Assembly (NCBI GenBank): GCA_964415175.1
Contig: CAYPYG010000003.1
Span: forward strand, 65,586 to 129,585
Source: an uncultured Elusimicrobiaceae bacterium
Lineage (GTDB): Bacteria > Elusimicrobiota > Elusimicrobia > Elusimicrobiales > UBA9959
Direction: 5' to 3'
DNA length: 64,000 bases
Under the pieces are notes generated by a model. It saw only the letters and a list, made by a program, of their open reading frames with translations. It made no database searches and had not been told where the DNA came from. Shown here piece after piece: positions 8,798-42,352 of this stretch (positions within the stretch are counted from its first letter, which is position 1; every line of letters starts with the position of its first letter). The position numbers were made by a program, and so were the translations under genes.

Positions 8798-8810
8798 CGG
8801 ATGCTTAATG

Positions 8811-8842
8811 GATTAAATATATTGTATCGTTTTATTGTCAAG
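8811..8842 (+). promoter_or_regulatory. AT-rich promoter-like element upstream of 8845
   Basis: Sequence gattaaatatattgtatcgttttattgtcaagg has ATTGTA at 8821-8826 and ATTGTC at 8834-8839, immediately upstream of ATG 8845. It is the same motif class as 846-851, 13004-13009 and 30705-30710. Confidence 0.3.
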
Positions 8843-8844
8843 GT

Positions 8845-10613: not shown

Positions 10614-10623
10614 GGCGCGAACG

Positions 10624-11894: not shown

Positions 11895-12968
11895 ATGACG
11901 GGAAAGAAAGAGATCTCCAAGCTCAAGATCGCGGTCACCTCGGACTGCTGTCTCTCCTGCACGCACTGTTTCATAGATAAATCGGCCGGGCTGACCGTGA
12001 AGGAGCCCGACGCGCGGCGCGCCGTGGACGCGCTTCTGGGGTCCCCCGGGAACGCCAAGAAACTGGAACTCTACGGCGGGGAAGCCCTGCTGAAACTGCC
12101 GCTGCTGGAGCGTATAACGGACTATGCCCGCGCCGCGGCCGCGCGCCGCCGCAAGAAGCTCTCGGTCTGGCTGGCCTCCAACGGTCTCACCCTCGGCCCC
12201 GGAGAACTCGGGTTCGTCCGGTCCAGGGATATCGTGCTTTCGATAAGCCTCTACGGCTCCGCCGCCTCGCACGACCGGGTCCGCCGCTTTCCCGGCGGCC
12301 GGGGAAGTTTCGAAGCGCTGGAACGGCGGCTGCCGGCGGTGTTCGCCGCGCTCGACCCCATGCGCGTGACGGCGCTGCTCTGCGTTCATCCCTCGCGCGC
12401 GGGCCTGGCCGACAGGGACCTCGCCGGCATCCTGTCCCTCGGTTTCCGGATCGTCAACATAGAGTGCGTGCACGGCGCGCCGTGGGGGACCGCGCGGCTG
12501 GCGGCTTTTTCGCGCGCCCTGGCGCGGGCGCGCTCCTCCTTCCTCGGGACCGTGCGGGCCGGCGGTTTCTATGCCTTCGAGCCCTTCATGGAGAGGGCGT
12601 CGCCGGCGCGTGCGAAGGGACCGGATTCCTGCCCTTTCCTGCGCGACCTGGAGCTTTTCCCCGACGGGCATTACTCGCTTTACCCTTTCGGTTTCGTCGA
12701 TTATCCGCGTTACGCCGCCCAGGTCAGGATCGGGACGCCGGCGGAAGGGTTCCTGGGCCGCTTCAGAGACTGCCGCCCCGGCGGGCCGGACTGTCCCTCG
12801 TGCGTGAGCCGTTACTACCGGGTGCCCGGGCTTTCCGGCGGTTCCGAGGCATATTCCCTGCGCACGGCTTTCCTGGACGCCCTGCTGCGGGAGGTGCTCG
12901 CCTCCAAAGACCCCTCCCTCCGGCGCTATTCCGGCCGGCTCGTTTCCCTGGCCGCCTCGGTCTGGTAA
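11895..12968 (+). CDS. Radical SAM protein (distant relative of the paralog family, Cys-rich tail retained)
   Basis: Start at ATG 11895 (MTGKKEISKLKIAVTSDCCLSCTHC = CxxxCxxC). Contains YGGEALL, SISLYGSAASHDRVRRF and CRPGGPDCPSC. The track ORF from 11304 is out-of-frame overlap with the ThrC-like gene. Confidence 0.75.
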   Translation: MTGKKEISKLKIAVTSDCCLSCTHCFIDKSAGLTVKEPDARRAVDALLGSPGNAKKLELYGGEALLKLPLLERITDYARAAAARRRKKLSVWLASNGLTLGPGELGFVRSRDIVLSISLYGSAASHDRVRRFPGGRGSFEALERRLPAVFAALDPMRVTALLCVHPSRAGLADRDLAGILSLGFRIVNIECVHGAPWGTARLAAFSRALARARSSFLGTVRAGGFYAFEPFMERASPARAKGPDSCPFLRDLELFPDGHYSLYPFGFVDYPRYAAQVRIGTPAEGFLGRFRDCRPGGPDCPSCVSRYYRVPGLSGGSEAYSLRTAFLDALLREVLASKDPSLRRYSGRLVSLAASVW

Positions 12969-14148: not shown

Positions 14149-15666
14149 ATGAAACACCCGCGAACGATACCGGAACCTTTCCTGCTTGAGGTCTTCCTGA
14201 CCAACCGGTGCAATATGGACTGCTCCTATTGCGCCTCCCGGCACATGATAACGCAGAAGACCGGCCGCGCCCTGAGCTTCGGGCAGCTCAAGGCCGCGGT
14301 GGACGTTTACGCCGCCTACGGCCGCGACGGCGGCGGGCCCCGCCGCGTTTCCGTGACGGGCGGGGAGCCTCTGCTGGAATTCGATACTCTTAAGCGCTTC
14401 GTCCGCTACGTCAGGCGCCGGTATCCCGGTTTCGAGATCAAGGTCGTGACCAATGCCACGCTGCTGGACAGGGAGAAAGCGGAGTTCTTCTTCGAGAACG
14501 ATGTCTTCCTCGTGATAAGCCTCGACGGCTGCCGGGAGGAGCACGACAGGCACCGCGTCTTCGGGGACGGCGCCGGACGCTCCGCCTTCGACGCCGTCCT
14601 GCGCAATCTCCGGCGCCTGCCGGCCGGGATGCGCCGCTCCGGCAACTTCTGCGTCTCCACGGTCATAACCTCCGAGACCGTCGCCTCTCTGCCCAGGACG
14701 CTGCGCTTCTTCGAGGAACTGGGGTTCCGCCAGGTCGCGCTCGGCTTCGACGAGTACGAGATGTGGAAGCCGGACGGGATACGCCGCCTGGAGAGAGCGC
14801 TAGCGGAGATAAAGGAGCGCCATTTCCGCGGGATAGTCGAGAGCGGCGACCTCGACGACCTCATCTGCTTCTCTTTCGTCGCCAGCTACCGGCTGGAAAG
14901 CCAGCGCCTGCTCTCGGATTATTTCGACGTTTTCTGCCGCGAGGTCACGCTGATGTTCGACGGGTACTTCTATCCCGGCGAGGCGGTCTTCGGCATGTCG
15001 GGGGAGGAGAAGTACAGGATAGGGACCCCGCGGACCGGGATAGACTTCGGCCGGGTCCGGGAGATCTATTCCGAGGCTTTCCCGGTCATACGGCGCTACG
15101 GGGAGAACGTGGGCGTGATCTGGCCGGTCAGCAGGTACTTCCACGCCGCCAACCGCGGCGTCGATCCGGACGCGATGATCGGGAACGCCGTGAGCGTCAA
15201 CGCCGCTTTCGACCGGGTCTTCGGCCCCTATTGGCGCATACAGAAGGTGCTGCTGCTGCTTAAGTCCGACGCGGCTTTCGGCGATTTCGCGCATCGCCCG
15301 AAGTATCTGGCGGGCAGGGAGACCGGCAGGCTGCGGCTCGCCGTATCCGGGATATCCGGACTCGCGGGCCTGCGGGCCGCGACCGACTATTTCCTGTATT
15401 CGCCCGGGAAGAAAAAGTCGCTGGTCCTGGAGGCCGTTGATCCCTCCGCCAGGACCCTGGACGCGGCGGAGGGGATGATTCTCTATTCGGTCATGAAGGC
15501 CCGTTCCCTTGGAAAAAAACTGGAACTGACGCTGGAGGCCGATGCGTCCTGCCTCGATGCCGGACGTTGGCGTTACCTGACCGAGCACGGCGTCAGGATC
15601 GGTATCAAGACTTCGGTAAAGAGCGCGCCCCGGAGATCACAGAACCCGCGGTGCCGCGTCTTATGA
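14149..15666 (+). CDS. Radical SAM paralog P1 (anSME/SPASM-type core, novel C-terminal domain)
   Basis: LLEVFLTNRCNMDCSYCAS; TGGEPLLEF; SLDGCREEHDRHRVF; FGDFAHRPKY; FLYSPGKKKSLVL; MKARSLGKKLEL. Confidence 0.85.
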   Translation: MKHPRTIPEPFLLEVFLTNRCNMDCSYCASRHMITQKTGRALSFGQLKAAVDVYAAYGRDGGGPRRVSVTGGEPLLEFDTLKRFVRYVRRRYPGFEIKVVTNATLLDREKAEFFFENDVFLVISLDGCREEHDRHRVFGDGAGRSAFDAVLRNLRRLPAGMRRSGNFCVSTVITSETVASLPRTLRFFEELGFRQVALGFDEYEMWKPDGIRRLERALAEIKERHFRGIVESGDLDDLICFSFVASYRLESQRLLSDYFDVFCREVTLMFDGYFYPGEAVFGMSGEEKYRIGTPRTGIDFGRVREIYSEAFPVIRRYGENVGVIWPVSRYFHAANRGVDPDAMIGNAVSVNAAFDRVFGPYWRIQKVLLLLKSDAAFGDFAHRPKYLAGRETGRLRLAVSGISGLAGLRAATDYFLYSPGKKKSLVLEAVDPSARTLDAAEGMILYSVMKARSLGKKLELTLEADASCLDAGRWRYLTEHGVRIGIKTSVKSAPRRSQNPRCRVL

Positions 15667-24945: not shown

Positions 24946-26403
24946 CTATCCCTGGTCCGGGAGCGGCCCAGGCCGGGATGTCCCCGCGAGCCTGAGTTTC
25001 TTGCCAAGGTAGCGCGCCTTCATGGCGGCGTAGAGCGCCATCCCGTCCGCCAGTTCCCGGCAGGACGCGGGTTCCCCGGCGCATTCCAGCGCCAGTTCCT
25101 TGCGCTCGCCCGGAGAGTAAAGGAAGGGGTCGAGCCTCTCCCGCAGTTTTACCGTCGAACAATCTGGACGGACCGCGAGGCGGAGGGAGCGTATCTCCTT
25201 GTCCCCCCGGTGGCGCGGCAGGTGAGTGAAGTCCCCGAAACCGGGGGTCATGTAGAGGCTTTTGTAGATGGCGAAGATGGAGAGATAATAGCGGGACTCC
25301 TCCTGGAAGGCCCGGTTCAGCTCGGAGGTGCTTTCCAGGATACGGTCTATTTTTTTCTCCGGGTAGCCGTTCACGAGCCCCCAGTAGTAGCCTTCCACCG
25401 GATTGCGCGGACCGGAGCGGTAGCGGCATTTCCTGGAAACCTCGTCGAGCATGGGGGCGAGTATGTCCCTGAGCCGCCCGAGGTCTATGCCGCTCTCCAG
25501 GTCCCCTATGCGGTATTTCGGGTCGATGGGCGGCGGCGCGGTCACGAAATCCGGCGAAGGGTAGAAGAAGCCGTCGTAGTGCAGGGCGAGCGTGCCCGAA
25601 GTGCATTCCCTGCCGTCGTCCTCCGATTTCAGCTCCCGCCTCAGCGGGAATTCCGCGAACGCGGCCTCGGTGCGTTTCACGTCCGAGCCCGGGTTCAGCG
25701 CTCCGAGGAACCCGTCTATCATGCGTCGTAAAGCCAGCCGGAAGCGTTCGATATCGGCCCTCTCCCATATTCCGTAAGCCTCCAGGCCTACCGGGATGGT
25801 CCTCGCCCCGAGGTCGTGCCTGAAAAAATCGACTATCTCCGGCAGCGCGTCCACGGTCCCGGGCGTCAGCGTGGGGGTGATGCAGCAGCGGTCCATGCGC
25901 TCCGGCGTCGGGTAGCCCTTCCTGAGATTTGCCGTCACGGCCTCGAAGACCGAGCCGCGCCCGCCGTCCGCGAATTTCCTGTGCAGATCGTTGACCGGTT
26001 TTATCCCGTCGAGGCTTACGCGCGCGAGAACCCCGTTCCGGAAGAAATAATCCGCCCGGTCCTTCGTCAGGAGGGTCCCGTTGGTGGCCACGGCCAGCTC
26101 GAAGTCCAGCCCCTCGGAGCGTATGTAATCGATGGTCCTTTTGACCAGGTCGAACTCCAGCAGGGGCTCCCCGCCGGAGAACTCCAGCTTGACGGACCCG
26201 GTGAACGTGCGGCGCATCCTGGGGCCCCTGGACACCAGGTCCACGAAGCGCTTCAACTGGGCGAAGGTCAGCGTCCTGTTCTCCGCGCCCCCCCGGAGAT
26301 GCCTGGTGTAGCAGTAGGAGCAGGCCTGGTTGCAGCGGTTCGTCATGATGATCTCGAGGTCGAGCATGGGCGGCTTGGCCGGTTTTGACGGTCCTGTCTT
26401 CAT
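24946..26403 (-). CDS. Radical SAM paralog P2
   Basis: Start at ATG 26403 (MKTGPSKPAKPPMLDLEIIMTNRCNQACSYCYT). SGGEPLLEF; SLDGIKPVNDLHRKF; GFGDFTHLPRH; FLYSPGERKEL; MKARYLGKKLRL. The track ORF to 26871 is read-through of P3. Confidence 0.85.
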   Translation of the reverse strand: MKTGPSKPAKPPMLDLEIIMTNRCNQACSYCYTRHLRGGAENRTLTFAQLKRFVDLVSRGPRMRRTFTGSVKLEFSGGEPLLEFDLVKRTIDYIRSEGLDFELAVATNGTLLTKDRADYFFRNGVLARVSLDGIKPVNDLHRKFADGGRGSVFEAVTANLRKGYPTPERMDRCCITPTLTPGTVDALPEIVDFFRHDLGARTIPVGLEAYGIWERADIERFRLALRRMIDGFLGALNPGSDVKRTEAAFAEFPLRRELKSEDDGRECTSGTLALHYDGFFYPSPDFVTAPPPIDPKYRIGDLESGIDLGRLRDILAPMLDEVSRKCRYRSGPRNPVEGYYWGLVNGYPEKKIDRILESTSELNRAFQEESRYYLSIFAIYKSLYMTPGFGDFTHLPRHRGDKEIRSLRLAVRPDCSTVKLRERLDPFLYSPGERKELALECAGEPASCRELADGMALYAAMKARYLGKKLRLAGTSRPGPLPDQG

Positions 26404-26405
26404 CG

Positions 26406-27905
26406 TCACCTCGTTCTCCCCGGAAAGTGCTCCAGTTCCACGCGCAGCTTTTTCCCCAGCCAGGCGGCCTTCATGGCCGAATACATGAGGACGGCTTCGG
26501 TCTTTTCTTCCGCCGCCCCGGCGGACCCCAGCACAAGGGTCTTCCGCCCGCCGGGAGAATAAAGGAAGTGGTCCACCTCGCCGCGCAGCCGGGCAAGGGA
26601 GGACTCTTCGCCGGCCTCCAGCCGCAGGCGGCGGACCTCCGCGCCCGCCGCGTGTTTCGGCGCGTGGGGGAAATCCCCGAAACCGGCTTCGCGGGAGAGC
26701 CCGCCGTAAAGCCGGTGCAGTCTGAGGAACCCTCCGGCCTCTTCGCGGAAGACCCTGTTGACCTCGGAGGTGCTCTCCAGGATCCGCTCTATCCGCGCGC
26801 GGGAGTAGCGGTTCACCAGGCCCCAGTAATAGCCCTCCACGGGAGAGCGCGGCCCGGACCGGAACCGGCACTTGCGGTCTATGGCGCGCAGCATCGGCGC
26901 GAAAGCGCGGCGCACCGCCGCGAAGTCTATCCCGCTTTCCAGGTCCCCGACGCGGTACTTTTCCTCCGGCGGGGGCGGGGCGACCACGAAGTCCGGCGAG
27001 GGATAAAAGTGTCCGTCGTAGAGAAGGGCGAGCGTCACGGTGGCCTGTTCCGGCCCCTCGCGGTAGCAGCGGATGTCCTGGCGTACGGGGAAATCGGCGA
27101 AAGCGGCCTCTATCTCCTTAGGGTCGCCCCCGGGAGCGAGGGGGGACAGGAAACCGCGGACGGAGCGCCGCAGGGCCAGGCGCAGACGCCGCAGGCCGGC
27201 GGCGTCCCATTCGCCGAAGGCCTCCAGTCCTATCCTGAGCTTGCGCACCCCCATTTCCCCGCGGAAAAAACGGATCGTGTCCGGCAGGGTAGGGATGGTC
27301 TCCGGGTCCAGGGTCGGGGATATGTTGCAATAGGCCCTGTGGCGCTCCGTGGGGAAGCAGGCGGAGATGTTCTTCATGACGGCGTCGAAGACGGATTTGT
27401 CCCTGTCGTGGGCGAAGACCCGGTGCCTGTCGTTGACCGCCTTCAGTCCGTCCAGGCTTATCCTTATGTCGACTCCGTTGGCGACCAGCCAGTCCGCGCG
27501 CTCCGGGGTCAGCAGCGTGCCGTTCGTGGCGATGGCGAGCTCGAAATCCAGACCGCGCCCGCGGATATACTCCACCGCGCGTTTGAGCGACGAATACTCC
27601 ATGAGCGGCTCGCCCCCGGCGAACTCCAGGCGCACCGGGCCGGCGAACTCCGTCCTTATCGCGCGGTCGGAGGCCAGGAGGTCCACGAAGCGTTCGAGCT
27701 GTTCCGGTGTCAGCTTTCTGGCGGAGCTGTCGTCGCGGAGATGGCGCGAGGAGCAGTAGGAACAGGCCAGGTTGCAGCGGTTGGTCAGGAATACTTCGAC
27801 CTCGAAGGCCGGCCGCGGGACCGGTGAGGCCGCCTTTTTCATTCCGGCGGCCGCCCCGCGGCGGGCGGGAACGGGGCTGTTTGCGCGTGACGTCGTTCTG
27901 CTCAT
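26406..27905 (-). CDS. Radical SAM paralog P3
   Basis: FEVEVFLTNRCNLACSYCSS; GGEPLMEY; SLDGLKAVNDRHRVF; GFGDFPHAPKH; FLYSPGGRKTL; MKAAWLGKKLRV. The start could alternatively be the internal MKKAAS, 21 codons downstream. Confidence 0.8.
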   Translation of the reverse strand: MSRTTSRANSPVPARRGAAAGMKKAASPVPRPAFEVEVFLTNRCNLACSYCSSRHLRDDSSARKLTPEQLERFVDLLASDRAIRTEFAGPVRLEFAGGEPLMEYSSLKRAVEYIRGRGLDFELAIATNGTLLTPERADWLVANGVDIRISLDGLKAVNDRHRVFAHDRDKSVFDAVMKNISACFPTERHRAYCNISPTLDPETIPTLPDTIRFFRGEMGVRKLRIGLEAFGEWDAAGLRRLRLALRRSVRGFLSPLAPGGDPKEIEAAFADFPVRQDIRCYREGPEQATVTLALLYDGHFYPSPDFVVAPPPPEEKYRVGDLESGIDFAAVRRAFAPMLRAIDRKCRFRSGPRSPVEGYYWGLVNRYSRARIERILESTSEVNRVFREEAGGFLRLHRLYGGLSREAGFGDFPHAPKHAAGAEVRRLRLEAGEESSLARLRGEVDHFLYSPGGRKTLVLGSAGAAEEKTEAVLMYSAMKAAWLGKKLRVELEHFPGRTR

Positions 27906-28038: not shown

Positions 28039-29427
28039 ATGAAAAAAAAGAGCGTGAAGCCGCAGCACCCCCGTTCGCCTTTCCTGCTGGAACTGGTGCT
28101 CTCCAACCGCTGCAACCTGGCCTGCGACTATTGTTCCTCCTCTTTCCTTCTGAAAGATAAGACCAGGAAGGTCCTTCCGTTCGGAACTCTCCGGCGCGCC
28201 GTCGACCTTTACGCGGTCTGTCTGCAGAAGAACGGCCTCGCCGGTGAGGGGCTCGTCTCCTTCACGGGCAACGAGCCGCTCCTGGATTTCCCGCTGCTGC
28301 GCCGGGTCGTCCGCTATATACGCCGCGCGTACCCCCGGATGAGGATGCGGCTGGATACGAACGGCACACTGCTGGACGCGGGGAAGGCCTCCTTCCTTTC
28401 CCGCAACGGCGTGCGTATCTTCGTCAGCCTGGACGGCTGCCGCGCGGCCCACGACAGGCACCGGACCTTTCCCGGCGGACGCGGGTCCTTCGACGCCGTC
28501 GTCGGGGCGCTCCGCGCTCTGCCGGAAGAGCTGCGCTCGGGCGGGGGACTCTGCGTCTGGTCGGTCGTCACGCCGGAGACCATCGGCCTGCTGCCGGAGT
28601 CCCTGGACCTCTTCCGCGGGCTCGGGGTCGGCACGGTGGTGCTCGGCCTCGAGACCTACGCCAGGTGGGACGCCGCGGCCCTTCGCCGGCTGAAGGCCGC
28701 TTTCCGGCTGTTCAGATCGCGGCCGCTCGAAGCGCTCGGCGGCTCCCCCCCGCCCCGCTTCCTCTTCGGCCTTTCGGGCGCCTCCGATTTCCGCGGGATG
28801 ATCGGGCAGGCCGTCTCGCTGGCGCTGGACGGCCGGTTCTATCCCTGCGATTTCGCCCTCATACCTCCGGGCGGGCGGGACCTCAGCGTGGGGGACCTGG
28901 AGAGCGGCATAGACATGCGGAAGCTGGACCGGATGATCTCGTCGCCCATGTTCCGCCGCATCGAACGCGGCTGCGAGCGCATGTCGGGCCTGCGCGCGCC
29001 GGTGGAGAGATATTACCGCGGGCTTTCCCTGGGGCTTTCCGGGCGGGAACTCTCCCGCGACCTGCGGGACACTTCCAGGGTCAACCTGCTTTTCGCGCGG
29101 GAGATGTCCGGTTATCTCGGACTGCTGGAGACCGGCGAGCGGCTGGCGACCGCTCCCGGTTTCGGCGACCTGGCCCACTCTCCCAAGTATTCCGCGGACA
29201 AGACCGCGGCCGCGTTCAGGCTGCGTCCGGGCGGCGCGCCGCTTTCCGCGCAGCGCGCCGGCCTGGACCTTTTCCTGTACGCGCCCGGCCGGAGAAAATC
29301 CCTGACCCTCGGGTTCGCGGCCGGGGACGACGCGGCCCGCGGGCCGGCCGCCGACCTCTGCGCTTATTCACTGGCCAAGGCCGGCCTGCTGGGCCTGAAA
29401 CTCGCCGTCAGCCTGGAGCCGGAGTGA
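28039..29427 (+). CDS. Radical SAM paralog P4
   Basis: LLELVLSNRCNLACDYCSS; TGNEPLLDF; SLDGCRAAHDRHRTF; GFGDLAHSPKY; FLYAPGRRKSL. Confidence 0.85.
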   Translation: MKKKSVKPQHPRSPFLLELVLSNRCNLACDYCSSSFLLKDKTRKVLPFGTLRRAVDLYAVCLQKNGLAGEGLVSFTGNEPLLDFPLLRRVVRYIRRAYPRMRMRLDTNGTLLDAGKASFLSRNGVRIFVSLDGCRAAHDRHRTFPGGRGSFDAVVGALRALPEELRSGGGLCVWSVVTPETIGLLPESLDLFRGLGVGTVVLGLETYARWDAAALRRLKAAFRLFRSRPLEALGGSPPPRFLFGLSGASDFRGMIGQAVSLALDGRFYPCDFALIPPGGRDLSVGDLESGIDMRKLDRMISSPMFRRIERGCERMSGLRAPVERYYRGLSLGLSGRELSRDLRDTSRVNLLFAREMSGYLGLLETGERLATAPGFGDLAHSPKYSADKTAAAFRLRPGGAPLSAQRAGLDLFLYAPGRRKSLTLGFAAGDDAARGPAADLCAYSLAKAGLLGLKLAVSLEPE

Positions 29428-30692
29428 GAGGGGATTTCCTGCTGGAGGTCTTCATCGGATGGCCCGGCTGCGGGAACGGGACCTCCGGGATCGCGCCGGA
29501 ACTCCTGCGCCGGGCGCTGGTCCGCGCGCGGCGCTTCGCCGGCCGGGGCGGGCGTTTCAAGATCGTTTTCACCGGCGGAGAGCCGCTCGGGGACCCCGGC
29601 CCGCTGTTCCGGCTGCTCCGGGCGGCGCGCCGCGCGGTCCCTTCGGCGGAACTGGAGGTCGTCTCCTCCGCGGAACTGCTGACCCCGCGGACCGTCCGGG
29701 ACCTGGTCTCCGCCGGCGCGGAGATAAGCGCCCGTTTCGACCTGCGCGGCGGCCGCCGCGCCCGCGCGGTCGTCCCCGCCCCTCTGGCCGCGACGATGTC
29801 CGACGGACGTCTCGCCGCGAGGGTGCACGCCGCCGCCGTTCTCGATTCGCGTTCGATAGGACGCCTGCCGGAGATCGCCCGCCTCCTCGGAGCACGCTCC
29901 GGGTTCAAGCAGCTGGAGATAGCGCTGGACGCCGGGGTAACATGGACCCCCGCCGCTCTGGACCGGCTGCGCCTGGAGCTGAAAGGCCTGAAAAGGTCCG
30001 CGGCCGCGGCGCTCGCCGCCGGCGGCCCGCCCGCCGGTTTTATTTTCAGCGGTTTCTCCGGGGCGCCCGCCGAGGAGGACCCGGGCCGGGCCCTCACGCT
30101 GTTCCCCGACGGGAGTTTCTTCCCGTCCGACCTGGCGACCCTGCCGCCGCTGCGGCGCTTCGCGGCCGGGGACGCCGCGGGGGGCATAGACGCTTCCCGG
30201 CTGCGCCGCCTGGCGGCCTTTCAGTCCGGGCTGGCCCGGAAGTACGGTGCGGGGCCCGTTTCGCCGGCCGAGAGTTACGCCCTGGGCGCCGCGCGCGGGC
30301 TTTCAGGGCGCGCGCTCGAGGGTTTCCTGGAGGGCGCCGCCCGCGTCAACCGGGTCTTCGCGGAGGAGGCCGGACCGCTGTTCTTCCTGGCCGGTATTTT
30401 CGCCCGCCTGCGCCGCGAACCCGGTTTCGGCGACCTGGTCCATCCGCCCAAATACGCCGCCCCGGTGCTCATGAGGGAGATGGCCATCGCCTGCGACGGT
30501 CCCGCGCCGGCCTCCCTGCGGGCCTGCGCCGACCTTTTCCTGCGGTCCCCCGGCGCGGCCAAGAGACTCTCGCTGGGAGGCCGGCCGGGTTCCCCGGCGG
30601 TCCCCCTCGCGGCCTACCTGCTGGCCGCCTCGCTGCTGCTCGGAAGGAAGTCCGCTCTTTCGATGATCCCTCCCGCCGGCCGTTCTCGCTAG
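29424..30692 (+). CDS. Degenerate paralog P5 lacking the CxxxCxxC radical-SAM cluster motif
   Basis: GTG start overlaps the P4 stop (GTGA 29424-29427). FLLEVFIGWPGCGNGTSG replaces TNRCNxxCxYC. It keeps TGGEPLG, GFGDLVHPPKY and FLRSPGAAKRL. The track ORF from 28665 is out-of-frame overlap with P4. Confidence 0.7.
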   Translation: MRGDFLLEVFIGWPGCGNGTSGIAPELLRRALVRARRFAGRGGRFKIVFTGGEPLGDPGPLFRLLRAARRAVPSAELEVVSSAELLTPRTVRDLVSAGAEISARFDLRGGRRARAVVPAPLAATMSDGRLAARVHAAAVLDSRSIGRLPEIARLLGARSGFKQLEIALDAGVTWTPAALDRLRLELKGLKRSAAAALAAGGPPAGFIFSGFSGAPAEEDPGRALTLFPDGSFFPSDLATLPPLRRFAAGDAAGGIDASRLRRLAAFQSGLARKYGAGPVSPAESYALGAARGLSGRALEGFLEGAARVNRVFAEEAGPLFFLAGIFARLRREPGFGDLVHPPKYAAPVLMREMAIACDGPAPASLRACADLFLRSPGAAKRLSLGGRPGSPAVPLAAYLLAASLLLGRKSALSMIPPAGRSR

Positions 30693-30697
30693 CTTTC

Positions 30698-30794: not shown

Positions 30795-32090
30795 ATGAAA
30801 AAAAGGAAACTGGGAAATACAGGGCTCCGCGTCTCCGTGCTGGGTTACGGTTCGGGGGTGCTGAGTTCCGTTCCTCCGGGGGAGCCTTCGGCGGCGCGTC
30901 TCCTCAACCGGCTTCTCGACTCCGGCGTCAACTATATCGACACCTCGCCCGACTACGGCAGCAGCGAAGAGCTCATCGGCCGGGCCCTGTCCGGGAGGAG
31001 GAGCGAGTTCTTCCTGGCCACCAAGTGCGGCTGCCCGGACAGGGGCTGGAGCCGCGGACATGTCTGGACCGCCGCCAGACTGCTGCACAATATCGAGAAC
31101 AGTCTGCGCCGCCTGAAGACCTCCTGCGTCGACGTGTGGCAGCTCCATAATCCGCCCCCGGAACTGGTCCGGCGCGGCGGCCTGCTGGAGGTCATGGAGA
31201 AGGTGCGGCGGCAGGGGAAGGCCCGTTTCGTTTCCGTCAGCACTTTTCTGCCCGACGCGGAGGAGTACATCGGCTGGGGGGCTTTCGACGTGTTCCAGCT
31301 GCCCTACGGCGCGCTGGACCGGCGCAACGAGTCCGCGGTCGCCGCGGCCTCCTGTTCAGGGGCCGGCGTGGTGGTCCGAGGGAGCATAGCGGAGGGCGAG
31401 CCGAAAGGCGCGCTTTCGCGCGACAGGCTCTGGAAGTTCTGGGCGGCGGCCGGCCTCGACGGCCTGCGCCCGGAGGACGAGAGCCGGACGGCTTTCCTGC
31501 TGCGCTTCGCTCTTTCCAACCCGGACGTGGACACCGCCGTCCTCGGTACCCGTTCTTCCGCGCATCTGGACGAGGCCGTGCGGGCGGCCGAAGCCGGTCC
31601 TCTGCCCGCGGAACTGGTCCGGGAGGTCCGCCGCAGGCTGGACGCCGCGGGCTGCCCGTCCGCGCCTCCCCGCGGGCGCAGGAAAGCCGGCGGCGGGCCG
31701 GGCAGCGTCGAAGTCGAGGTGAAGCCGGCGGAGGCCGCCTGCCTGCCGGCGCTCGTCGAGTCCGCCGCCGCGGGCGGCGCGCGGATCAGGCTGCGCCCAG
31801 GGACCGGCCCCTGGGACAGGTCGTCCCTGGCGGCCCTAAGGCGCGGTCTGGCCGGCCTCGGCAAGACCATTATCTCGGGCGTCGCCAGGGGGCGCCGCCT
31901 GCACCTGGACGGCGCCGGCGGCCGCGCGGCTTCGGGGACGGGCCCGGCGGCGGAGGAACTTCGCCGGGGGCTGGACAGGATAGCGGAAGGAGTGGAGTCG
32001 CTGGCGGACAGAAGCAAGGCGTTCAGGGAGTACCTCGACGAAGCCGCGGGCGGCCGCGGCGTGCGGGGGCGCGGACGCGGCAAGAGGTAA
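30795..32090 (+). CDS. Aldo/keto reductase with ~140-aa C-terminal extension related to the locus-specific module
   Basis: AKR N-terminus KLGNTGLRVSVLGYG, then NYIDTSPDYG and VDVWQLHN. The extension (~31665-32090) has LRRGLAGLGKTII and KAFREYLDEA, matching LRAGLAGLGQLLL / PAFKAYLAAL of 42353-43135. Confidence 0.8.
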   Translation: MKKRKLGNTGLRVSVLGYGSGVLSSVPPGEPSAARLLNRLLDSGVNYIDTSPDYGSSEELIGRALSGRRSEFFLATKCGCPDRGWSRGHVWTAARLLHNIENSLRRLKTSCVDVWQLHNPPPELVRRGGLLEVMEKVRRQGKARFVSVSTFLPDAEEYIGWGAFDVFQLPYGALDRRNESAVAAASCSGAGVVVRGSIAEGEPKGALSRDRLWKFWAAAGLDGLRPEDESRTAFLLRFALSNPDVDTAVLGTRSSAHLDEAVRAAEAGPLPAELVREVRRRLDAAGCPSAPPRGRRKAGGGPGSVEVEVKPAEAACLPALVESAAAGGARIRLRPGTGPWDRSSLAALRRGLAGLGKTIISGVARGRRLHLDGAGGRAASGTGPAAEELRRGLDRIAEGVESLADRSKAFREYLDEAAGGRGVRGRGRGKR

Positions 32091-32099: not shown

Positions 32100-34283
32100 A
32101 TGAAAAGCACTTATACCGAACAGGTCGGCATGACCAACGCTCTTTCGATAGAGATCTTCATCACCAACCGCTGCAGCATGGACTGTTCCTACTGCTCGTC
32201 GCGGTACATGATACACGAGAAGGACGCCAGGCGCCTGAGCTTCGAGCAGCTCAAGGTCGCCTTCGACGCGCTGGACCGCGATCCCTACATCAAAAAGCAT
32301 TTCGGCGGCAAGGTGCACGTGGACCTGACCGGCGGCGAGCCGCTGATAGAGTACGAGACCATAAAACAGATCGTGGCCTACGTGCGGGCCAACCTGAAGC
32401 TCGAATACGAGTTCGAGCTGGAGACCAACGGCACGCTGCTCACCGAGGAGCGGATAAAGTACCTCATCGACAACAAGATAGAGATACGGCTCAGCCTCGA
32501 CGGCTACAAGGCCCAGAACGACAAGCACCGCCGGTTCCGCAACGCCAGCGACGCCTCCGCCTACGAGGCCATCATCCGCAAGATGAAAATGGGCCTTATC
32601 GGGACCAGGCACATGGACCTGGTCTATGTCGGGGCCATACTGGACGCGGAGGACTTCCAGAACCTGCCCAAGGTGATGGACTATTTCAAGAACGAACTGG
32701 GCTTCAGGCGCATGGAGATAGGTCCGTCGGCCTACGAGCTCTGGGACGAGGCGGCCATCGCCCGTCTCCGCAAGGCCCTGCGCAGCATGACGCCCGAGCT
32801 GATGGCCACGCTGGAGCACCAGATGGGCATCAATAAGCGCGAGTCCGTCTTCCACGAATTCCTCTTCACCCAGTCGAAGACCATCGGCACGGCCTACGAG
32901 GACCTGGCCAAGAAGACCATAACCCTGTTCTACGACGGCTGCTGGTACATGTGCGACTTCGTGGTCAAGCCGCCGCTCGACCCGAAGTTCCGCGTCGGGG
33001 AGCTGAAGAAAGGGATAGATTTCGGCCGCATCCGGACGATAAGCCGCTACCCGATGTTCAAGGAGATCTACTCCAAGTGCGAGCACCGCTCCGGGTTCTT
33101 CTCCCCCGTAGAGGGTTATTACTGGGGAGTGGTCCATAAGTTCACGCCGAAACAGCTCGACGACATGATGTGGAACACCTCCAACATGAACAAGGTCCTG
33201 GGCGAGGAGGTCGGCTGGTACACCAAGCTGCAGAAGACCTATTACGACCTTTACATGAAGCCCGGCTTCGGCGACTTCGGCCACGACCCCAAGCATAAGG
33301 CCGGCAAGGAGATGCGCACGCTCCGCCTGTCGGTCAGCGACTCGTCCGATATCGTCAGGCTGAGGGCCGCGGTGGACTTCTTCCTCTACTCGCCCGGCGA
33401 CCGCAAGCGCCTGGTCATGGACGCCACCGACAACGGCGCGGAGACCGCGCGGATAGTCGAAGGCATGGTCCTCTACTCGCTGGTCAAGACCGGCAAGGGC
33501 TACCTGGACAAGAAGCTCCGCCTGATGCTGGAGACCGACGCGAAGGGTTTCGACGACGACAACTGGCGCTTCCTCGACGACCACGGCGTGCAGGTCGGCA
33601 TCAAGGCGGCCTCCCGCTACAGCGCCGCCACGGCCTACCGCCGCAGCTACCAGATGGACGCCGCCCTGAACACGGTCGACAGCACCTACGCCGTGCCCGG
33701 CGTCACGCGGCGCAACGCGCGGAACCTGCCGACCCTGGTGGAGGCGGCCGTGCGCAACGGCTGCCGCTGGGTGCGGCTGGAACTGTCGGGCCGCGAGGAC
33801 TGGCGCGACGCCGACATCGCGGGGCTGCGCTCCGGGATGGAGAAGCTCGGCCAGGCGCTCGTGGCCGGCATCGCCAAAGGAGAGCCGGTTTACCTGCTTA
33901 ACTTCGAGGAGGCCGAAACCCCCGCCGGCTGCCCCGTCTTCGCCGATTCCTTCCTGGCCGACGGCGGCGGCGACTACAGGCTTGTCCCGCCGCAATGGCG
34001 CTATGACGGCCGCGGCGTGAAGGTCGGCGATTTCGACCGCGGCGTCGGGGAGCTCGCCGGCTGCGCCTGGTCCGCCGCTTCGGGGACCTGCGCGGCCTGC
34101 GCGCGCCGGCCGGCCGCCGCCGGTTACGACGCCTGGGCGGAGCGGGAATTCTCCGCGGGGCTGCGCAGGGCGCTGGAAGGCATCAGATACCTGGCCGCCA
34201 AAAAGAAGCCCTTCGCCGCCTACCTGGAGGCCCTGCGCTCCGACAGGGAGAGGGTCTCGGGGCTGCTCATAAACAAGAAATGA
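32100..34283 (+). CDS. Radical SAM paralog P6 fused to C-terminal Cys4 module
   Basis: SIEIFITNRCSMDCSYCSS; TGGEPLIEY; SLDGYKAQNDKHRRF; GFGDFGHDPKH; FLYSPGDRKRL. Then a ~220-aa extension carries AGCPVF...YRLVPPQWRYDGRGVKVG...GCAWSAASGTCAAC...FAAYLEAL. AAGGAGAGG RBS. Confidence 0.85.
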   Translation: MKSTYTEQVGMTNALSIEIFITNRCSMDCSYCSSRYMIHEKDARRLSFEQLKVAFDALDRDPYIKKHFGGKVHVDLTGGEPLIEYETIKQIVAYVRANLKLEYEFELETNGTLLTEERIKYLIDNKIEIRLSLDGYKAQNDKHRRFRNASDASAYEAIIRKMKMGLIGTRHMDLVYVGAILDAEDFQNLPKVMDYFKNELGFRRMEIGPSAYELWDEAAIARLRKALRSMTPELMATLEHQMGINKRESVFHEFLFTQSKTIGTAYEDLAKKTITLFYDGCWYMCDFVVKPPLDPKFRVGELKKGIDFGRIRTISRYPMFKEIYSKCEHRSGFFSPVEGYYWGVVHKFTPKQLDDMMWNTSNMNKVLGEEVGWYTKLQKTYYDLYMKPGFGDFGHDPKHKAGKEMRTLRLSVSDSSDIVRLRAAVDFFLYSPGDRKRLVMDATDNGAETARIVEGMVLYSLVKTGKGYLDKKLRLMLETDAKGFDDDNWRFLDDHGVQVGIKAASRYSAATAYRRSYQMDAALNTVDSTYAVPGVTRRNARNLPTLVEAAVRNGCRWVRLELSGREDWRDADIAGLRSGMEKLGQALVAGIAKGEPVYLLNFEEAETPAGCPVFADSFLADGGGDYRLVPPQWRYDGRGVKVGDFDRGVGELAGCAWSAASGTCAACARRPAAAGYDAWAEREFSAGLRRALEGIRYLAAKKKPFAAYLEALRSDRERVSGLLINKK

Positions 34284-35845
34284 CGGCCAGGACCCTGTCT
34301 CGCGGCAAAGGCGGCGGGCCCGCCGGCGGAAGCGCCGGCCGGGCCATCGCCCCGACGCTGCTCGAGGTGGAGGTCTATCTTACCAACCGCTGCAACCTCG
34401 CCTGCTCCTACTGTTCCGCCAGGCACATCATACGCGAGCGCGACGTCTCGCGGCTCACCGGCGCGCAGCTCGTGCGGGCGGTCGACCTGCTGGCCGGCGA
34501 CCCCGGGGTGCGCCGGCGCTACGGCGGGCGCGTCAGGCTGACCTTCAAGGGAGGGGAGCCTCTCCTGGAGTACGGCGCGATGAAGGCGGCGATAGACCGC
34601 GTCAGGGAGCGCCGCCTCGGCTTCGAGCTGGCGCTGACCACCAACGGCACGCTGCTGACCCCGGAGCGGATGGACTACCTGGCGGCGAACGGCGTGGAGG
34701 TCTGCGTCAGCATAGACGGCTACAAGGAGGTCAACGACCTCCACCGCAAGTTCAAAGGGGCGGGCGGGCGTTCCGTCTACGACGCGGTGATGGGGAACCT
34801 GCGGCGGCTGATGGGGGACGAACGCTACCGCCGGCGCATACACATAGGGACCACTTTCACCGCCGACACCATCGCCAGCGCGCCGGAAGTGGCCGAGTTC
34901 TTCAGCCGCCGCCTCGGCTTCCGCCAGCTCAAGATAGGCATAGAGGTCTACGGGATCTGGGGACGGGCCGGCATCGCCGCGCTCCGCCGGGCTTTGCGGG
35001 CTTTCAAGTCGAGGTTCCTCGCTTCCCTGCCCGCGGCGGCGGCCGCCGGCCGCGTGGAGGAGCTCCTCTCCGAGATACAGTTCTCCCAGTACATGCGCAA
35101 CCTGCCCAATGTGTGGGACGGGGAGGCCCCGCTCAACGAGCTGGCCGCCAATCCCCTCGCCCTTTTCTACGACGGCGCCTTCTATCCCTGCGACCTGGCC
35201 CTGAAACCGCCCCTGGAGGCCGGGTACCGCGTGGGCGACCTCCGCAGCGGCCTCGATCTCCGGCGCTTCGACGAGATATGCGCCCTGCCGCGCTTCGCCG
35301 GGCTGTCCCGGAAATGCGCCCATCCTTCCGGCCTGCTCTCCCCCGTCGAGCGCTGCTGCTGGGGGATAGTCAACGGCTACGGCCCCGCCAGGCTGGCGCG
35401 CCTGCTGGAGAACACCTCCGAGGTCAACGAGGTATTCGGGCGGGAGATGGGCCCGTATGCCAGGATGCAGAGGGTCTGCGAACAGCTTTTCATGACGCCG
35501 GGCTTCGGCGATTTCGCGCATGAGCCGAAGTACCGCGCCCCGCGCGAAGTCCGCTCGCTGCGGGTCCGGGCCGCGCCGGGCGGGGATATCGTGCGGCTCC
35601 GGGCGGCCGCCGACTACGCGCTCTGCTCCCCGGGTCCGCGCAAGAAGCTCGTTATAGAGACGCCCCGCGGCGGCGGGGCGCTGGACCTCGCCGAGGCCCT
35701 CTCGCTGTACGCCGCGGTGAAGGCCCGGTGCCTCGGCAAGAGGCTGCTGCTCGCGGTGCGCTCCCCGGCGGGCGCCGCCGACGCCGCGAGAAAAAGGTCC
35801 TTCGCGGAGCTGGGCGTGCGGCTGGAGGAAACATGGGGGGAGTGA
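34280..35845 (+). CDS. Radical SAM paralog P7
   Basis: LLEVEVYLTNRCNLACSYCSA; KGGEPLLEY; SIDGYKEVNDLHRKF; GFGDFAHEPKY; VKARCLGKRLLL. ATGA overlap at 34280-34283. Confidence 0.85.
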   Translation: MTARTLSRGKGGGPAGGSAGRAIAPTLLEVEVYLTNRCNLACSYCSARHIIRERDVSRLTGAQLVRAVDLLAGDPGVRRRYGGRVRLTFKGGEPLLEYGAMKAAIDRVRERRLGFELALTTNGTLLTPERMDYLAANGVEVCVSIDGYKEVNDLHRKFKGAGGRSVYDAVMGNLRRLMGDERYRRRIHIGTTFTADTIASAPEVAEFFSRRLGFRQLKIGIEVYGIWGRAGIAALRRALRAFKSRFLASLPAAAAAGRVEELLSEIQFSQYMRNLPNVWDGEAPLNELAANPLALFYDGAFYPCDLALKPPLEAGYRVGDLRSGLDLRRFDEICALPRFAGLSRKCAHPSGLLSPVERCCWGIVNGYGPARLARLLENTSEVNEVFGREMGPYARMQRVCEQLFMTPGFGDFAHEPKYRAPREVRSLRVRAAPGGDIVRLRAAADYALCSPGPRKKLVIETPRGGGALDLAEALSLYAAVKARCLGKRLLLAVRSPAGAADAARKRSFAELGVRLEETWGE

Positions 35846-37251
35846 AGCGCCCCGCCGGGCCGGAGCCGTTCCTGGTCGAAATATTCCTGACCGGCCGCTG
35901 CAACATGGACTGTACCTACTGCGCGGCGCGTTACATGATCCATGCGAAGGAGCCCGGCCTGCTGACTTTCGAACAGCTGAAGCGGGCGGCGGAAGTGATA
36001 GCCGCCGACCGCGTGGTGAGGCGGAAGCACGGGGGGAGGGTCAGGATCTCCTTCACCGGCGGCGAGCCGATGCTCGAGTTCGCTCTTATCGAGAAGGCGG
36101 TGCGCCATATGCGGGCGCGGTACCCGGACTGGGAATTCGACGTCTCCACCAACGGCACGCTCCTGACACCGGAGAGGCTCGAGTTCTTCCTGCGCAACGA
36201 CGTGGGGCTCAGCGTCAGCCTGGACGGTTTCGGCCGCGTCAACGATTCCCACCGCCGCTTCGTCTCGGGAAAGGCTTCCGCTTTCGGCGTGGTCGAGCGG
36301 AGCCTGCGCGCCGGCCTGGACGATCCGCGCTACCGCGACCTGTTCCACGTCGCCGCGACGCTGACCTCCCGCACCATCGGGGACCTGCCCGGCGTCGTGA
36401 GTTTCTTCAGGGAACGGACGGGGCTCAGGGAGCTCGAGATAGCGCTGGAGGCCTACGAGGACTGGGGACCGCCGGCGCGCGCCGGGCTGCGCCGCGTCCT
36501 GCGCGGGCTGGGGAGGAGATGCGCGGCGGCCCTGGAGCGCGGCGAAGGGGCCGAGGAGGCTTTCAGGGAATTCATCTTCACGCAGGCGAAGGGGGCCGAG
36601 GGACGGGAACTGACCCAAAAAGCGCTGACGCTCTTTTACGACGGCCGTTTCTACCCGTGCGACTTCGTGGTCAAGCCGCCGCTGGAGGAGGAATACTGCG
36701 TGGGGGACCTGGAGCGGGGACTGGACCACGGCCGCCTGGAAGCCCTGGAGCGGCTGCCTCTTTTCAGGGAGATAGAGAGGAAATGCGAGTTCAAGTCCGG
36801 CCTGCTCTCCCCCGTCGAGCGCTACTACTGGGGGATGGTGCACGGCTATTCGAGGGCCGGACTGGACGCCGTCCTTCTCAATACTTCCGAGGTCAACAGA
36901 ATCTTCCACGAGGAACTGGGACCTTACCTGCGCCTCCAGCGCGCCTACGCCAGGCTGTTCATGTCCCCCGGCTTCGGCGATTTCGTCCACGCCCCTAAAT
37001 TCGCCGGGAGCTCCGCCGCCGGCCTGCTCCGGCTGGCCGTTCCGGCCGGAGCCCCGCCCGCGCGGCTGCGGGCCGCGGCCGACTGGCAGCTCCACTCTCC
37101 CGGCGCCGGCGCGCTCAGGCTGGCCGCGGCGGACGGCCGTCCGGCGCGGGCCGCCGCCGGGGACATCGCTTTCTACGCCATGGTCAAATCGCGCATGCTG
37201 GGGAAGAGGTCGCGCGTGGAGCTGGAAGCGGACGGCGGGGGGCGGGCATGA
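35833..37251 (+). CDS. Radical SAM paralog P8
   Basis: Start at ATG 35833 (MGGVKRPAGPEPFLVEIFLTGRCNMDCTYCAA), a 13-nt overlap with P7. TGGEPMLEF; SLDGFGRVNDSHRRF; GFGDFVHAPKF; VKSRMLGKRSRV. Confidence 0.85.
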   Translation: MGGVKRPAGPEPFLVEIFLTGRCNMDCTYCAARYMIHAKEPGLLTFEQLKRAAEVIAADRVVRRKHGGRVRISFTGGEPMLEFALIEKAVRHMRARYPDWEFDVSTNGTLLTPERLEFFLRNDVGLSVSLDGFGRVNDSHRRFVSGKASAFGVVERSLRAGLDDPRYRDLFHVAATLTSRTIGDLPGVVSFFRERTGLRELEIALEAYEDWGPPARAGLRRVLRGLGRRCAAALERGEGAEEAFREFIFTQAKGAEGRELTQKALTLFYDGRFYPCDFVVKPPLEEEYCVGDLERGLDHGRLEALERLPLFREIERKCEFKSGLLSPVERYYWGMVHGYSRAGLDAVLLNTSEVNRIFHEELGPYLRLQRAYARLFMSPGFGDFVHAPKFAGSSAAGLLRLAVPAGAPPARLRAAADWQLHSPGAGALRLAAADGRPARAAAGDIAFYAMVKSRMLGKRSRVELEADGGGRA

Positions 37252-38648
37252 TAGTCAACCCTCTGCGCGCCGACCACCGCCCGCGGGAGGAGTTCCTGCT
37301 CGAGGTCTTCCTTACCAACCGCTGCAACCTGGACTGCTCGTACTGCTCCTCGCGGCGGATGATAGACGAGCCGGCGCGGCGCGCCCTTTCTTTCGGGCAG
37401 GTGCGGCGCGCGGTGGACGTCTTCGCCGCCTACGGGCGCCGCCGCGGCGCGCGCCAGGAGCGCACCGTCTTTTTCACCGGCGGCGAGCCTTTCCTGGAAT
37501 ACGACGTTCTCCGGCGCTCCGTGGAGTACATCGACTCCCTGCCGGGCGGGTTCCGCGTCAGGATAGCCACCAACGCGACGATGCTGGACCCGGCGAGGGT
37601 GAAGTTCCTGCTGGACCATGACGTCCGGATATTCGTCAGTCTCGACGGCTGCCGGAAAGCGCACGACCGCCACCGGGTCTCCCGCGGCGGCCGCGGCTCC
37701 TTCACGGAGATAGACCGGGCGTTGCGCCGGCTGCCGCGCTCCGTGCGCGGCGGGCCCAATTTCTGCGTTTCCGCCACCTTCACCTCCGAGACCGCGAAGT
37801 GGCTTCCCGAGAGCCTGGATTACTTCCGGGACCTGGGCATAAGAGTGGTCGAGATCTGCCCCGAGGCCTACGAGGTCTGGCGGCCGGCGGACATAGCCCG
37901 CGCGGCCGCGGTGCTGGCCCGCGTGGCGAGGGAGCGCCTCTACCGCCGCTTCGAAGGGGAGGCCGGCGGGCCGCAGTTCGTGTTCTCCAATAGTTCGGCC
38001 CCCGACAACTCGAAATGGGCCGTCGCCGACTACAGGGATACCCTGCTGCACAGCGTCAGTTTCATGTACGACGGCTTTTTCTATCCCTGCGAGGCGGTCT
38101 TCGGCGGCGGGACGGAGGCCGCCTACCGCATCGGCGACGCGGAGCGCGGCATAGACCGGCGGCGGGCGGAGAAAGTGTACGCGGCCGCGCTCGCGCGCAT
38201 ACGCCGCTGCGCCCCCTCGGTCGGCACGCTGCTGACGGCAGGGCGCTATTATTACGCCGTGAACGCCGGGCTCGACCCGGCGGAATATTTCGACAACGCC
38301 CGCCGGGTTAACGAGGCCTTCGACTCGGCGTTGGGAGGCTGCCTGCGCGCCCAGCTGCTGCATGACCGCGTCACGGCGCTGCCCGATTTCGGCGATTTCG
38401 CTCACGCTCCCCGCCTCGCCTCCCGGCGGGAGCTCCCCGCCCTAAGGCTGGAAGCTGCGCCCGGCTCCGACCCGGCCCGCCTGCGGGCCTGCGTCGACCA
38501 TTTCCTGTACTCTCCCGGCGCGCGAAAGGCGCTGGCCATCCGCCGCGCCGCCGGCGCGGAGGAAGTATCCTCGGCCCTGGCGCTGTACGCCCTTTCCAAG
38601 GCGGGCCGCCTGCGCAAAAGACTTTCCGTCAGGACGGAGGCGGCGTGA
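37248..38648 (+). CDS. Radical SAM paralog P9
   Basis: FLLEVFLTNRCNLDCSYCSS; TGGEPFLEY; SLDGCRKAHDRHRVS; DFGDFAHAPRL; FLYSPGARKAL. ATGA overlap at 37248-37251. Confidence 0.85.
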   Translation: MIVNPLRADHRPREEFLLEVFLTNRCNLDCSYCSSRRMIDEPARRALSFGQVRRAVDVFAAYGRRRGARQERTVFFTGGEPFLEYDVLRRSVEYIDSLPGGFRVRIATNATMLDPARVKFLLDHDVRIFVSLDGCRKAHDRHRVSRGGRGSFTEIDRALRRLPRSVRGGPNFCVSATFTSETAKWLPESLDYFRDLGIRVVEICPEAYEVWRPADIARAAAVLARVARERLYRRFEGEAGGPQFVFSNSSAPDNSKWAVADYRDTLLHSVSFMYDGFFYPCEAVFGGGTEAAYRIGDAERGIDRRRAEKVYAAALARIRRCAPSVGTLLTAGRYYYAVNAGLDPAEYFDNARRVNEAFDSALGGCLRAQLLHDRVTALPDFGDFAHAPRLASRRELPALRLEAAPGSDPARLRACVDHFLYSPGARKALAIRRAAGAEEVSSALALYALSKAGRLRKRLSVRTEAA

Positions 38649-42315: not shown

Positions 42316-42352
42316 ATACTCGGAGGCGGGGCGACCGCCACGGAGGCGGACA

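Follow-up and report, generated by a model that had tools for sequence, protein, structure and literature searches.

The locus considered here raises the question of what a C-terminal region shared by a whole series of radical S-adenosylmethionine (SAM) paralogs is, and of what it may do. The stretch analysed, called hereafter the window, covers 64,000 nucleotides of contig CAYPYG010000003.1 (assembly GCA_964415175.1) from an uncultured Elusimicrobiaceae bacterium, and the paralog taken as reference, P1, is encoded at 14149..15666 (+). P1 is a 505-residue radical SAM protein, 100% identical to an NCBI entry named 'radical SAM protein [Elusimicrobiales bacterium]', and is composed of a catalytic module (residues ~1-372), whose cluster motif CNMDCSYC (CX3CX2C; motif scan and alignment) lies at 14209..14232 (+), and of a tail (residues ~373-490). 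A previous interpretation drawn from the letters of the window (the sequence-only reading) regarded this tail as a new domain that could not be recognised. Profile alignments, hidden Markov model (HMM) matches and structural models rather indicate a truncated, cluster-less duplicate of a radical SAM half-barrel: the tail very probably is the opening part (three to four β/α units) of a second radical-SAM-type barrel, β1-α1-β2-α2-β3(-α3-β4), descended from a radical SAM barrel, and it is well supported that a family-specific FGDFxHxP linker precedes it.

The tails taken alone gave no significant match in Pfam, NCBIfam or PDB sequence profiles, in line with the sequence-only reading, which had recognised the tail from no described radical SAM subfamily. 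The top PDB sequence profile, Ssr1698, was not significant (E 0.6-1.1), and Cupin_6 and FAD_binding_2, which were matched in Pfam by single tail members, were put aside as chance. The first clue to a duplication came from the motif 'FLxxHGV', which occurs twice, in α3-β4 of the core and again past the tail. When the profile of the tail, built from 75 family members (representatives at the 50%-identity level), was aligned with that of the family core using hhalign, a score of 42.7 was obtained (P 2.6e-6), with 79 columns in register over α1-β2-α2-β3-α3-β4. As controls, the reversed tail scored 8, nine of ten column shuffles scored 8-13 (the tenth produced a spurious 133-bit match of just 10 columns) and block shuffles scored 25 or less. 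The hhalign probability of the tail-to-core match was 88.7% for the short tail, and that of the C-terminal module of the long forms, in which the tail continues into a whole pseudo-barrel, against the N-terminal module was 97% (E 9.6e-11, 164 collinear columns).

A second line of evidence is provided by a gene of the window itself. The gene at 11895..12968 (+) encodes a bona fide, stand-alone radical SAM protein of 357 residues with CCLSCTHC, GGEALL and twitch-like cysteines, whose NCBIfam matches are peptide maturases, every one under its cutoff. This protein is matched by the tail HMM (E 4.4e-12) and by the HMM of the long module (E 1.6e-16, positions 18-256 of 270). When it is aligned with the tail, its cluster loop stands out as 17 inserted residues, and its segment 'RRAVDALLGSPGNAKKLELYGGE' joins the LYSPGxxKxLxL motif of the tail to the α1-β2-GGE of radical SAM enzymes. 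Among active enzymes, the 11895..12968 protein is the one most closely related to the pseudo-module, whose ancestor it may resemble. Since the pseudo-module has lost the CX3CX2C loop that joins β1 to α1, and its GGE is replaced by 'raadga' (LVLEA in P1), it is unable to bind the radical SAM cluster or SAM canonically; with both motifs gone, the tail is to be seen as a pseudo-module and not as a second active radical SAM domain.

The structural models point in the same direction. In the AlphaFold2 (AF2) model of P1 (predicted local distance difference test, pLDDT, 84.9; predicted template modelling score, pTM, 0.83), the order of secondary structures in the tail (β394-399, α405-417, β422-429, α434-453, β457-463, α471-479, β483-485) mirrors the N-terminal β1-α1…β4 of the catalytic module (β12-16, α44-56, β66-70, α74-91, β96-101, α108-116, β120-124). 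Residues 375-717 of a long form, modelled alone, gave a pLDDT of 84.3 and a pTM of 0.86, and the Foldseek search with this module, a check that had been proposed together with structure prediction, returned radical SAM enzymes of the SPASM/twitch type as all of its 16 best PDB matches (CteB, E 4.9e-10; anSME, E ~5e-8; also ChlB, TigE and SkfB), generic TIM barrels ranking after them.

It could be argued that a separate domain, of Rossmann/flavodoxin-like or RiPP recognition element (RRE)-like type, forms the tail and that its likeness to a radical SAM half-barrel is convergent. Repeats of β-α-β are widespread and the hhalign probability of the short tail is just 88.7%. Pairwise BLASTP weighs against the descent proposed here, in that the long module compared with the 11895..12968 protein reached only E 0.05, in the LYSPG stretch; the homology is seen with profiles and predicted structures. 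Against convergence, the HMM matches to a real radical SAM protein have E values of 1e-12 to 1e-16 and are collinear over 240 positions, in the long forms the barrel is completed and bears a twitch-like hairpin and cysteine motif, and Foldseek places radical SAM/SPASM enzymes above every generic barrel. An RRE is a winged helix, made of three helices and a three-stranded antiparallel sheet. This type of domain (PqqD-like) was ruled out, since the tail is predicted by AF2 to be a parallel β-α-β-α-β-α-β and no PqqD/RRE family was matched in Pfam or NCBIfam. We therefore consider a convergent fold very improbable, and retain descent of the tail from a radical SAM barrel.

The extent of the tail in P1 was also defined more closely. 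The segment flagged by the sequence-only reading, 15277..15540 (+), corresponds to residues F377-A464 and contains the FGDFxHxP linker followed by β1'-α1'-β2'-α2'-β3'. Its location was right and its end was placed too early, as in both the AF2 model and the tail HMM the domain of P1 continues to ~15605 (~60 nucleotides more) through the α3-β4 segment 'RWRYLTEHGVRIGIK'. With α3'-β4' included, the whole P1 tail spans 15265..15627 (+), which the tail HMM matches at positions 2-121 of 125 (E 4.5e-45).

We then turn to the module to which this tail is attached. P1 scored 70.9 bits with PF04055, and the catalytic modules of the paralogs scanned scored 58-71 bits, for a gathering threshold of 29.5; residues G71, E73 and P74 of the GGEP SAM motif are invariant in alignment A2. 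Whole-protein Pfam matches of the paralogs were limited to PF04055 and Fer4_12. The AF2 model and Foldseek, whose top matches with the P1 model were CteB, anSME and ChlB (viperin and MoaA were also found), describe the catalytic module as a partial (β/α)6 TIM barrel. None of the named NCBIfam radical SAM maturases (PapB, CcpM, HxsB and others) reached its curated cutoff for the paralogs; the best partial match, the ranthipeptide maturase PapB (101-115 bits, cutoff 340), extends over the barrel and into the beginning of the SPASM region. At this place the family profile 'DGyFYPsd…YrvGdlekG' aligns with the hairpin that starts the SPASM domain of CteB, 'PEGDIYPCHQFVG…FKMGNVKEG' (CteB, E 5e-37), and strands 265-268 and 274-276 form this hairpin in the P1 model. 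Judging from its motifs and profiles, the catalytic module is probably an active radical SAM enzyme of the anSME/CteB/PapB lineage, in agreement with the anSME/SPASM-type core that had been proposed.

This hairpin is no longer followed by a SPASM domain with its clusters. PF13186 (SPASM) was not detected at E <= 0.1 in the six tail-bearing paralogs scanned, nor as a precomputed match on the family homologs P0002-P0031. In SPASM/twitch enzymes the cysteines of the auxiliary clusters follow CX9-15GX4C … CX2CX5CX3C … C; of this pattern, the SPASM motif CX2CX5CX3C is present in none of the 75 family members, a cysteine of the hairpin is kept in 37 of them, and no position of the SPASM-equivalent region yields a conserved ligand set. 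That the SPASM cysteines are missing was therefore correctly seen from the sequence; the statement that the region holds at most one or two cysteines was too strict, the range being 0-6 with a median of 2. Retention of the post-barrel β-hairpin together with loss of the auxiliary-cluster ligands is thus well supported for the catalytic module.

A six-frame scan and a MAFFT alignment identified in the window 15 paralogs in which CN[LM]xCxYC/GGEP and the tail occur together, and a sixteenth tail in a paralog devoid of CX3CX2C. The family tail HMM matches all 16 sites (E 1e-7 to 4.5e-45), which confirms the tail as a mark that defines the paralog family. The tails are ~95-125 residues long and follow the pattern FGDFxHxP … RxxxDxxLYSPGxxKxL … YxxxKAxxLGK; in the 15 paralogs, alignment A1 shows FGDFxHxP(K/R), RLRL, DxFLYSPGxRKxLxL and LYxxxKAxxLGKKL. 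Besides P1, paralogs are encoded at 24946..26403 (-; tail 24958-25251, E 4.8e-38), 26406..27842 (-; tail 26415-26693, E 1.4e-35), 28054..29427 (+; tail 29146-29421, E 7e-27), 34280..35845 (+; tail 35492-35833, α3'-β4' included, E 2.5e-40), 35842..37251 (+; tail 36961-37242), 37248..38648 (+; tail 38382-38642), 43188..44546 (+; tail 44268-44537), 45862..47283 (+; tail 46996-47274), 47280..48689 (+; tail 48411-48683), 48686..50077 (+; tail 49799-50071) and 51882..53351 (+; tail 52989-53342, with a 17-residue insert). The paralog at 44543..45865 (+) has a degenerate tail that lacks GFGDF (45644-45859, E 1e-7), and two further paralogs, at 32130..34283 and 40939..42315, belong to the long and split forms described below.

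The sixteenth tail (30414-30680, E 8e-17) is carried by a cluster-less paralog of 422 residues at 29424..30692 (+), which has lost CX3CX2C and has retained GGEP, the β-hairpin and the tail. The core HMM matches it at positions 55-208 and the Pfam Radical_SAM match is only E 0.006, under the cutoff. Its GTG start overlaps the stop codon of the upstream paralog (GTGA). Its sequence is that of a probable pseudo-enzyme, translationally coupled to the upstream paralog. An open reading frame at 29459-31150 was rejected as a gene, as it is a spurious Arg/Pro-rich frame and the true gene, 29424-30692, lies in another frame.

The conservation of the tail bears on whether it has a role of its own, as an old gene fusion could also have left it behind, decaying and functionless by itself. 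Every catalytic motif has indeed been lost from the tail, one copy (45644-45859) is degenerate, and the ratio of nonsynonymous to synonymous substitutions (dN/dS), measured against orthologs of 92% and 71% identity, is higher in the tail (0.28-0.32) than in the core (0.07-0.19). However, the 15 paralogs share on average about as much pairwise identity in the tail (37.7%) as in the core (38.7%), with 16.6% in the linker between them, and this identity together with the dN/dS of 0.28-0.32 indicates that the tail is maintained by purifying selection. The conserved motifs hold their positions, as the sequence-only reading had supposed: the mean column identity of alignment A1 is 44%, and 15 positions are at least 90% conserved in the 75 members (G378, D379, H382, P384, R409, D413, L416, S418, P419, G420, K423, L425, Y446, K450 and L454). 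Moreover, the tail survives where the catalytic part has decayed, being kept in paralogs whose cluster motif is lost, namely 29424-30692 and a 318-residue paralog of the related locus L001, and also in the truncated 199-residue protein P0075. Conservation of the tail is thus independent of catalytic competence, and a functionless remnant appears very improbable compared with a tail that is maintained as a pseudo-module.

Most paralogs hold the first half of the pseudo-barrel only, and the long forms hold the whole of it. Long forms, of 575-717 residues, were found in ~18 representative clusters and in the window at 32130..34283 (+), where a 717-residue protein has a catalytic module followed by a full pseudo-radical-SAM module (33252-34283) with a twitch-like hairpin and four cysteines. 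The distal half also occurs as a separate gene. The tail of the paralog at 40939..42315 (+) stops just past β3' (42025-42279), and the next gene, at 42350..43135 (+), encodes a free-standing distal half from α3'/β4' to the end, with the cysteine pattern C…Cx8CxxC (E 9.6e-36; 55% identity to P0132) and without any Pfam or NCBIfam match. The long-module HMM matches positions 3-95 in the first gene and positions 97-268 in the second, and the pair therefore looks like a split long form. The longest open reading frame of the second gene starts at 42296; an AT-rich spacer and a GGAGG ribosome-binding site precede the ATG at 42350. P0132, itself a free-standing distal half, opens an operon in the related loci L001-L003.

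Other pieces of these modules are fused to other enzymes of the pathway. The aldo-keto reductase (AKR) at 30795-32090 (+; PF00248 at residues 16-279) has a C-terminal region of ~130 residues homologous to the distal pseudo-module (31710..32048, +; distal HMM E 1.1e-13, long HMM E 2.4e-12), without hairpin and without cysteines. The pyruvate, phosphate dikinase (PPDK)-like protein of 765 residues at 38645-40942 (+; PPDK_N and PEP-utilizers in Pfam) has at its N-terminus a β5-α6 piece of the catalytic core (38783..39031, +; N-terminal-module HMM E 5.6e-12, positions 147-229). The twitch-like four-cysteine pattern C…Cx5-8CxxC is found in a subset of the distal halves and is common to the 11895..12968 protein.

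It had been suggested to check whether the tail ever occurs free-standing, and this holds in part: nearly free-standing forms exist, each keeping part of the core. P0075 (199 residues; L001 5196-5795, -) consists of a core remnant and an intact tail, opens its operon and recurs in three samples (L001-L003); the cluster-less 318-residue paralog (L001 8095-9051, +), which likewise recurs in three samples, and the 422-residue paralog of the window are the other such forms. It should also be mentioned that P0072, a metagenomic protein of 964 residues, contains two complete tail-bearing paralogs in one open reading frame, and that P0021 and P0028, encoded on the same 7-kb contig, have a damaged or deleted CX3CX2C and internal duplications and may be pseudogenes or assembly errors.

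What the tail does can be approached from these arrangements. The motifs FGDFxHxP, LYSPGxxK and YxxxKAxxLGK are kept in all paralogs and are predicted, from the modelled topology, to lie on αβ loops on one face, at the bottom of the barrel. Parts that are found both fused and split are predicted to interact, according to the domain-fusion ('Rosetta stone') logic, and such an interaction is accordingly predicted for the two halves of the pseudo-module. With the αβ-loop motifs shared and the distal half present in cis, as a separate gene or fused to an AKR, the partner of the tail is probably a distal half, or else a second tail. We tentatively propose that the tail would act as a non-catalytic docking or assembly half-barrel, and that this pairing would tether many radical SAM paralogs to common partners in the pathway of the nitrogenase-like NflHDK proteins, so that successive radical modifications could be made on a single bound substrate. 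The oligomerisation idea of the sequence-only reading fits the fused and split spread of the other half of the pseudo-module. Taken jointly, the structural identity of the tail and its docking function are held with moderate confidence.

Three observations weigh against this docking function. The pTM of 0.83 obtained for the P1 monomer suggests that the tail may just pack on its own catalytic domain, at least 14 short tails face about three distal pieces in the window, and the invariant polar residues D379, H382, K423, Y446 and K450 could equally make up a ligand site. The last point leads to another explanation, namely that the tail serves to bind a substrate or carrier, by a shared part of the pathway substrate, each paralog modifying a different position of one molecule; D379, H382, S418, K423, Y446 and K450 would then hold, for example, tetrapyrrole carboxylates or a stretch of peptide or protein. 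Many of the 15 positions conserved at 90% or more are polar, and the tail is common to all paralogs while their cores diverge (core-versus-tail identity, r = 0.24 in the window). There is no N-terminal RRE, as the radical SAM motif begins at residue ~20 (of the 16 paralogs with a tail, 15 have CN[LM]xCxYC within residues ~15-38, without N-terminal extension), and the nearest characterised relatives act on peptides or proteins. In addition, a 344-residue exported protein of no matched family is encoded directly upstream of P1 (13072-14106, +); a membrane anchor or signal at its N-terminus is followed by a middle part rich in cysteine (~16 of them) and by a Glu/Lys/Ala-rich C-terminus, and the protein could conceivably serve Cys-modifying radical SAM relatives as substrate or scaffold. 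On the other hand, no match to a ligand-binding family was obtained with the tail, R409 and D413 come from α1 by descent and are found in the catalytic core too ('RAVD'), the conserved motifs are located by the predicted topology on the αβ loops of the barrel bottom and not on the usual βα ligand side, and the tail is kept in catalytically dead paralogs. Substrate or carrier binding, the main rival of docking, appears rather unlikely and less probable than docking.

As the SPASM clusters have been lost in all paralogs, an auxiliary-cluster subunit shared between them is conceivable. The tail could in that case dock a trans-acting, twitch-like Fe-S subunit, either the 42350-43135 protein with its C…Cx8CxxC pattern or, in cis, the distal half of a long form. 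Such a subunit would serve at least 14 radical SAM enzymes, giving them an auxiliary cluster or holding the substrate, and the whole would work as a radical assembly line of several steps, coupled to nitrogenase-like reductases. This more specific version of docking is considered improbable.

The distribution of the tail is narrow. When 1.84 billion cluster representatives were searched exhaustively with the HMM, the kind of metagenome search that had been advised, 64 tail proteins were returned, 53 of them at E <= 1e-10, with the tail nearly always at residues ~370-480 of radical SAM proteins of 440-717 residues. The exhaustive search was used in place of a word-indexed one, which found only the fragment P0001 with the tail profile and only P0132 with the C-terminus of the long form. 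All named members come from Elusimicrobiales or Elusimicrobiota metagenome-assembled genomes (MAGs) and carry the label 'hypothetical' or 'radical SAM protein'. When species-representative genomes were scanned, matches extending through the tail were found in Elusimicrobia only; the other matches end near residue 310.

By its gene content and its Elusimicrobiales origin, the window is a group VI nitrogenase-paralog (NflHDK) cluster. Three sets of genes encode, according to Pfam, a fusion of NifH-like and NifD-like proteins (Fer4_NifH and Oxidored_nitro, 822-873 residues) followed by a NifK-like protein (Oxidored_nitro), all on the forward strand, at 877-3378 and 3356-4669, at 17215-19683 and 19661-20959, and at 21023-23644 and 23644-24945. 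Fusion of an Fe-protein homolog to the D subunit is an unusual arrangement. The gene at 50074-51885 (+) encodes a 603-residue HemN/HemZ/ChuW-like radical SAM protein (STM4012 family, 198 bits, under cutoff) and is the sole gene of the locus with an evident tetrapyrrole-enzyme affinity. HxsC-like radical SAM proteins (NCBIfam) are encoded at 6508-7434 and 63-791. A peptidase-U32-family gene (5552-6499, -; Pfam E 3e-12) and an open reading frame that resembles it by eye and has no Pfam match (4725-5549, -) sit between a NifK-like gene and an HxsC-like one. The region 7530-11865 is an amino-acid-type block with OTCase-like (-), poly-γ-glutamate-hydrolase-like, amino-acid-kinase-like and pyridoxal phosphate (PLP)-dependent (PALP) enzymes.

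Such clusters have been reported before. Passages of Méheust et al. 2020 (bioRxiv 10.1101/765248 / ISME J) describe a large set of radical SAM proteins at the Pfam level, with B12-binding and HemN_C fusions, and propose a tetrapyrrole cofactor for the cluster; section 7 of a 2026 review (PMC13474568) lists the group VI system as unsolved. The word 'SPASM' is nowhere in the text of the preprint (bioRxiv 10.1101/765248), and passages of this preprint and of PMC13474568 hold no description of cysteine-less SPASM-derived paralogs, of the tail or of the pseudo-module.

The results presented here indicate that most of this radical SAM suite is one lineage-specific family, which derives from SPASM peptide or protein maturases and from no obvious tetrapyrrole enzyme family, and which has given up its auxiliary clusters. 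For reconstitution, they offer domain boundaries, likely pseudo-enzyme constructs and choices of proteins to co-express. They also provide an unusual case in the evolution of radical SAM enzymes, a tandem duplicate turned into a non-catalytic module, and the tail HMM is a specific marker with which such loci can be located (64 clusters among the 1.84 billion representatives).

Comparison with known systems places these features as follows. The group VI NflHDK clusters (Méheust et al. 2020) resemble the window in its three NifH-NifD-like fusions with NifK-like partners, its radical SAM suite, its HemN-like radical SAM protein and its origin in an Elusimicrobiales MAG. The maturases anSME, CteB and PapB (PDB 4K36-4K39, 5WGG/5WHY; NCBIfam NF047865), among which anSME and CteB are the best sequence and structural matches of the catalytic module, have in common with it CX3CX2C, GGE, the partial TIM barrel and the hairpin 'DGxFYPxD…YRVGDL'. 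By contrast, the window family lacks the auxiliary-cluster cysteine motif, PF13186 and the RRE of these enzymes, and adds a C-terminal pseudo-radical-SAM module that is present in none of them. TIGR04347, a 'pseudo-SAM/SPASM protein' likened here by its family name alone, would share a radical-SAM-type fold without the canonical cluster motif; it matches only the catalytic cores of the window (~45-52 bits, cutoff 525), whereas the pseudo-module of the window is appended to an active radical SAM module, is mostly a half-barrel and also occurs split.

Tandem radical-SAM-type barrels in a single polypeptide are found in FbiC (CofG-CofH), both domains of which are catalytic, in contrast to the second domain of the window family, which is without cluster and SAM motifs. 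In HisF, the half (βα)4 units HisF-N and HisF-C associate to rebuild a barrel; a comparable association is what we infer for the tail and a complementary half. The gene cluster was thus already known, and what is new is the description, at family level, of a cysteine-less, SPASM-derived enzyme and of its half-barrel tail, which varies a known fold and exists in long, split and fused versions.

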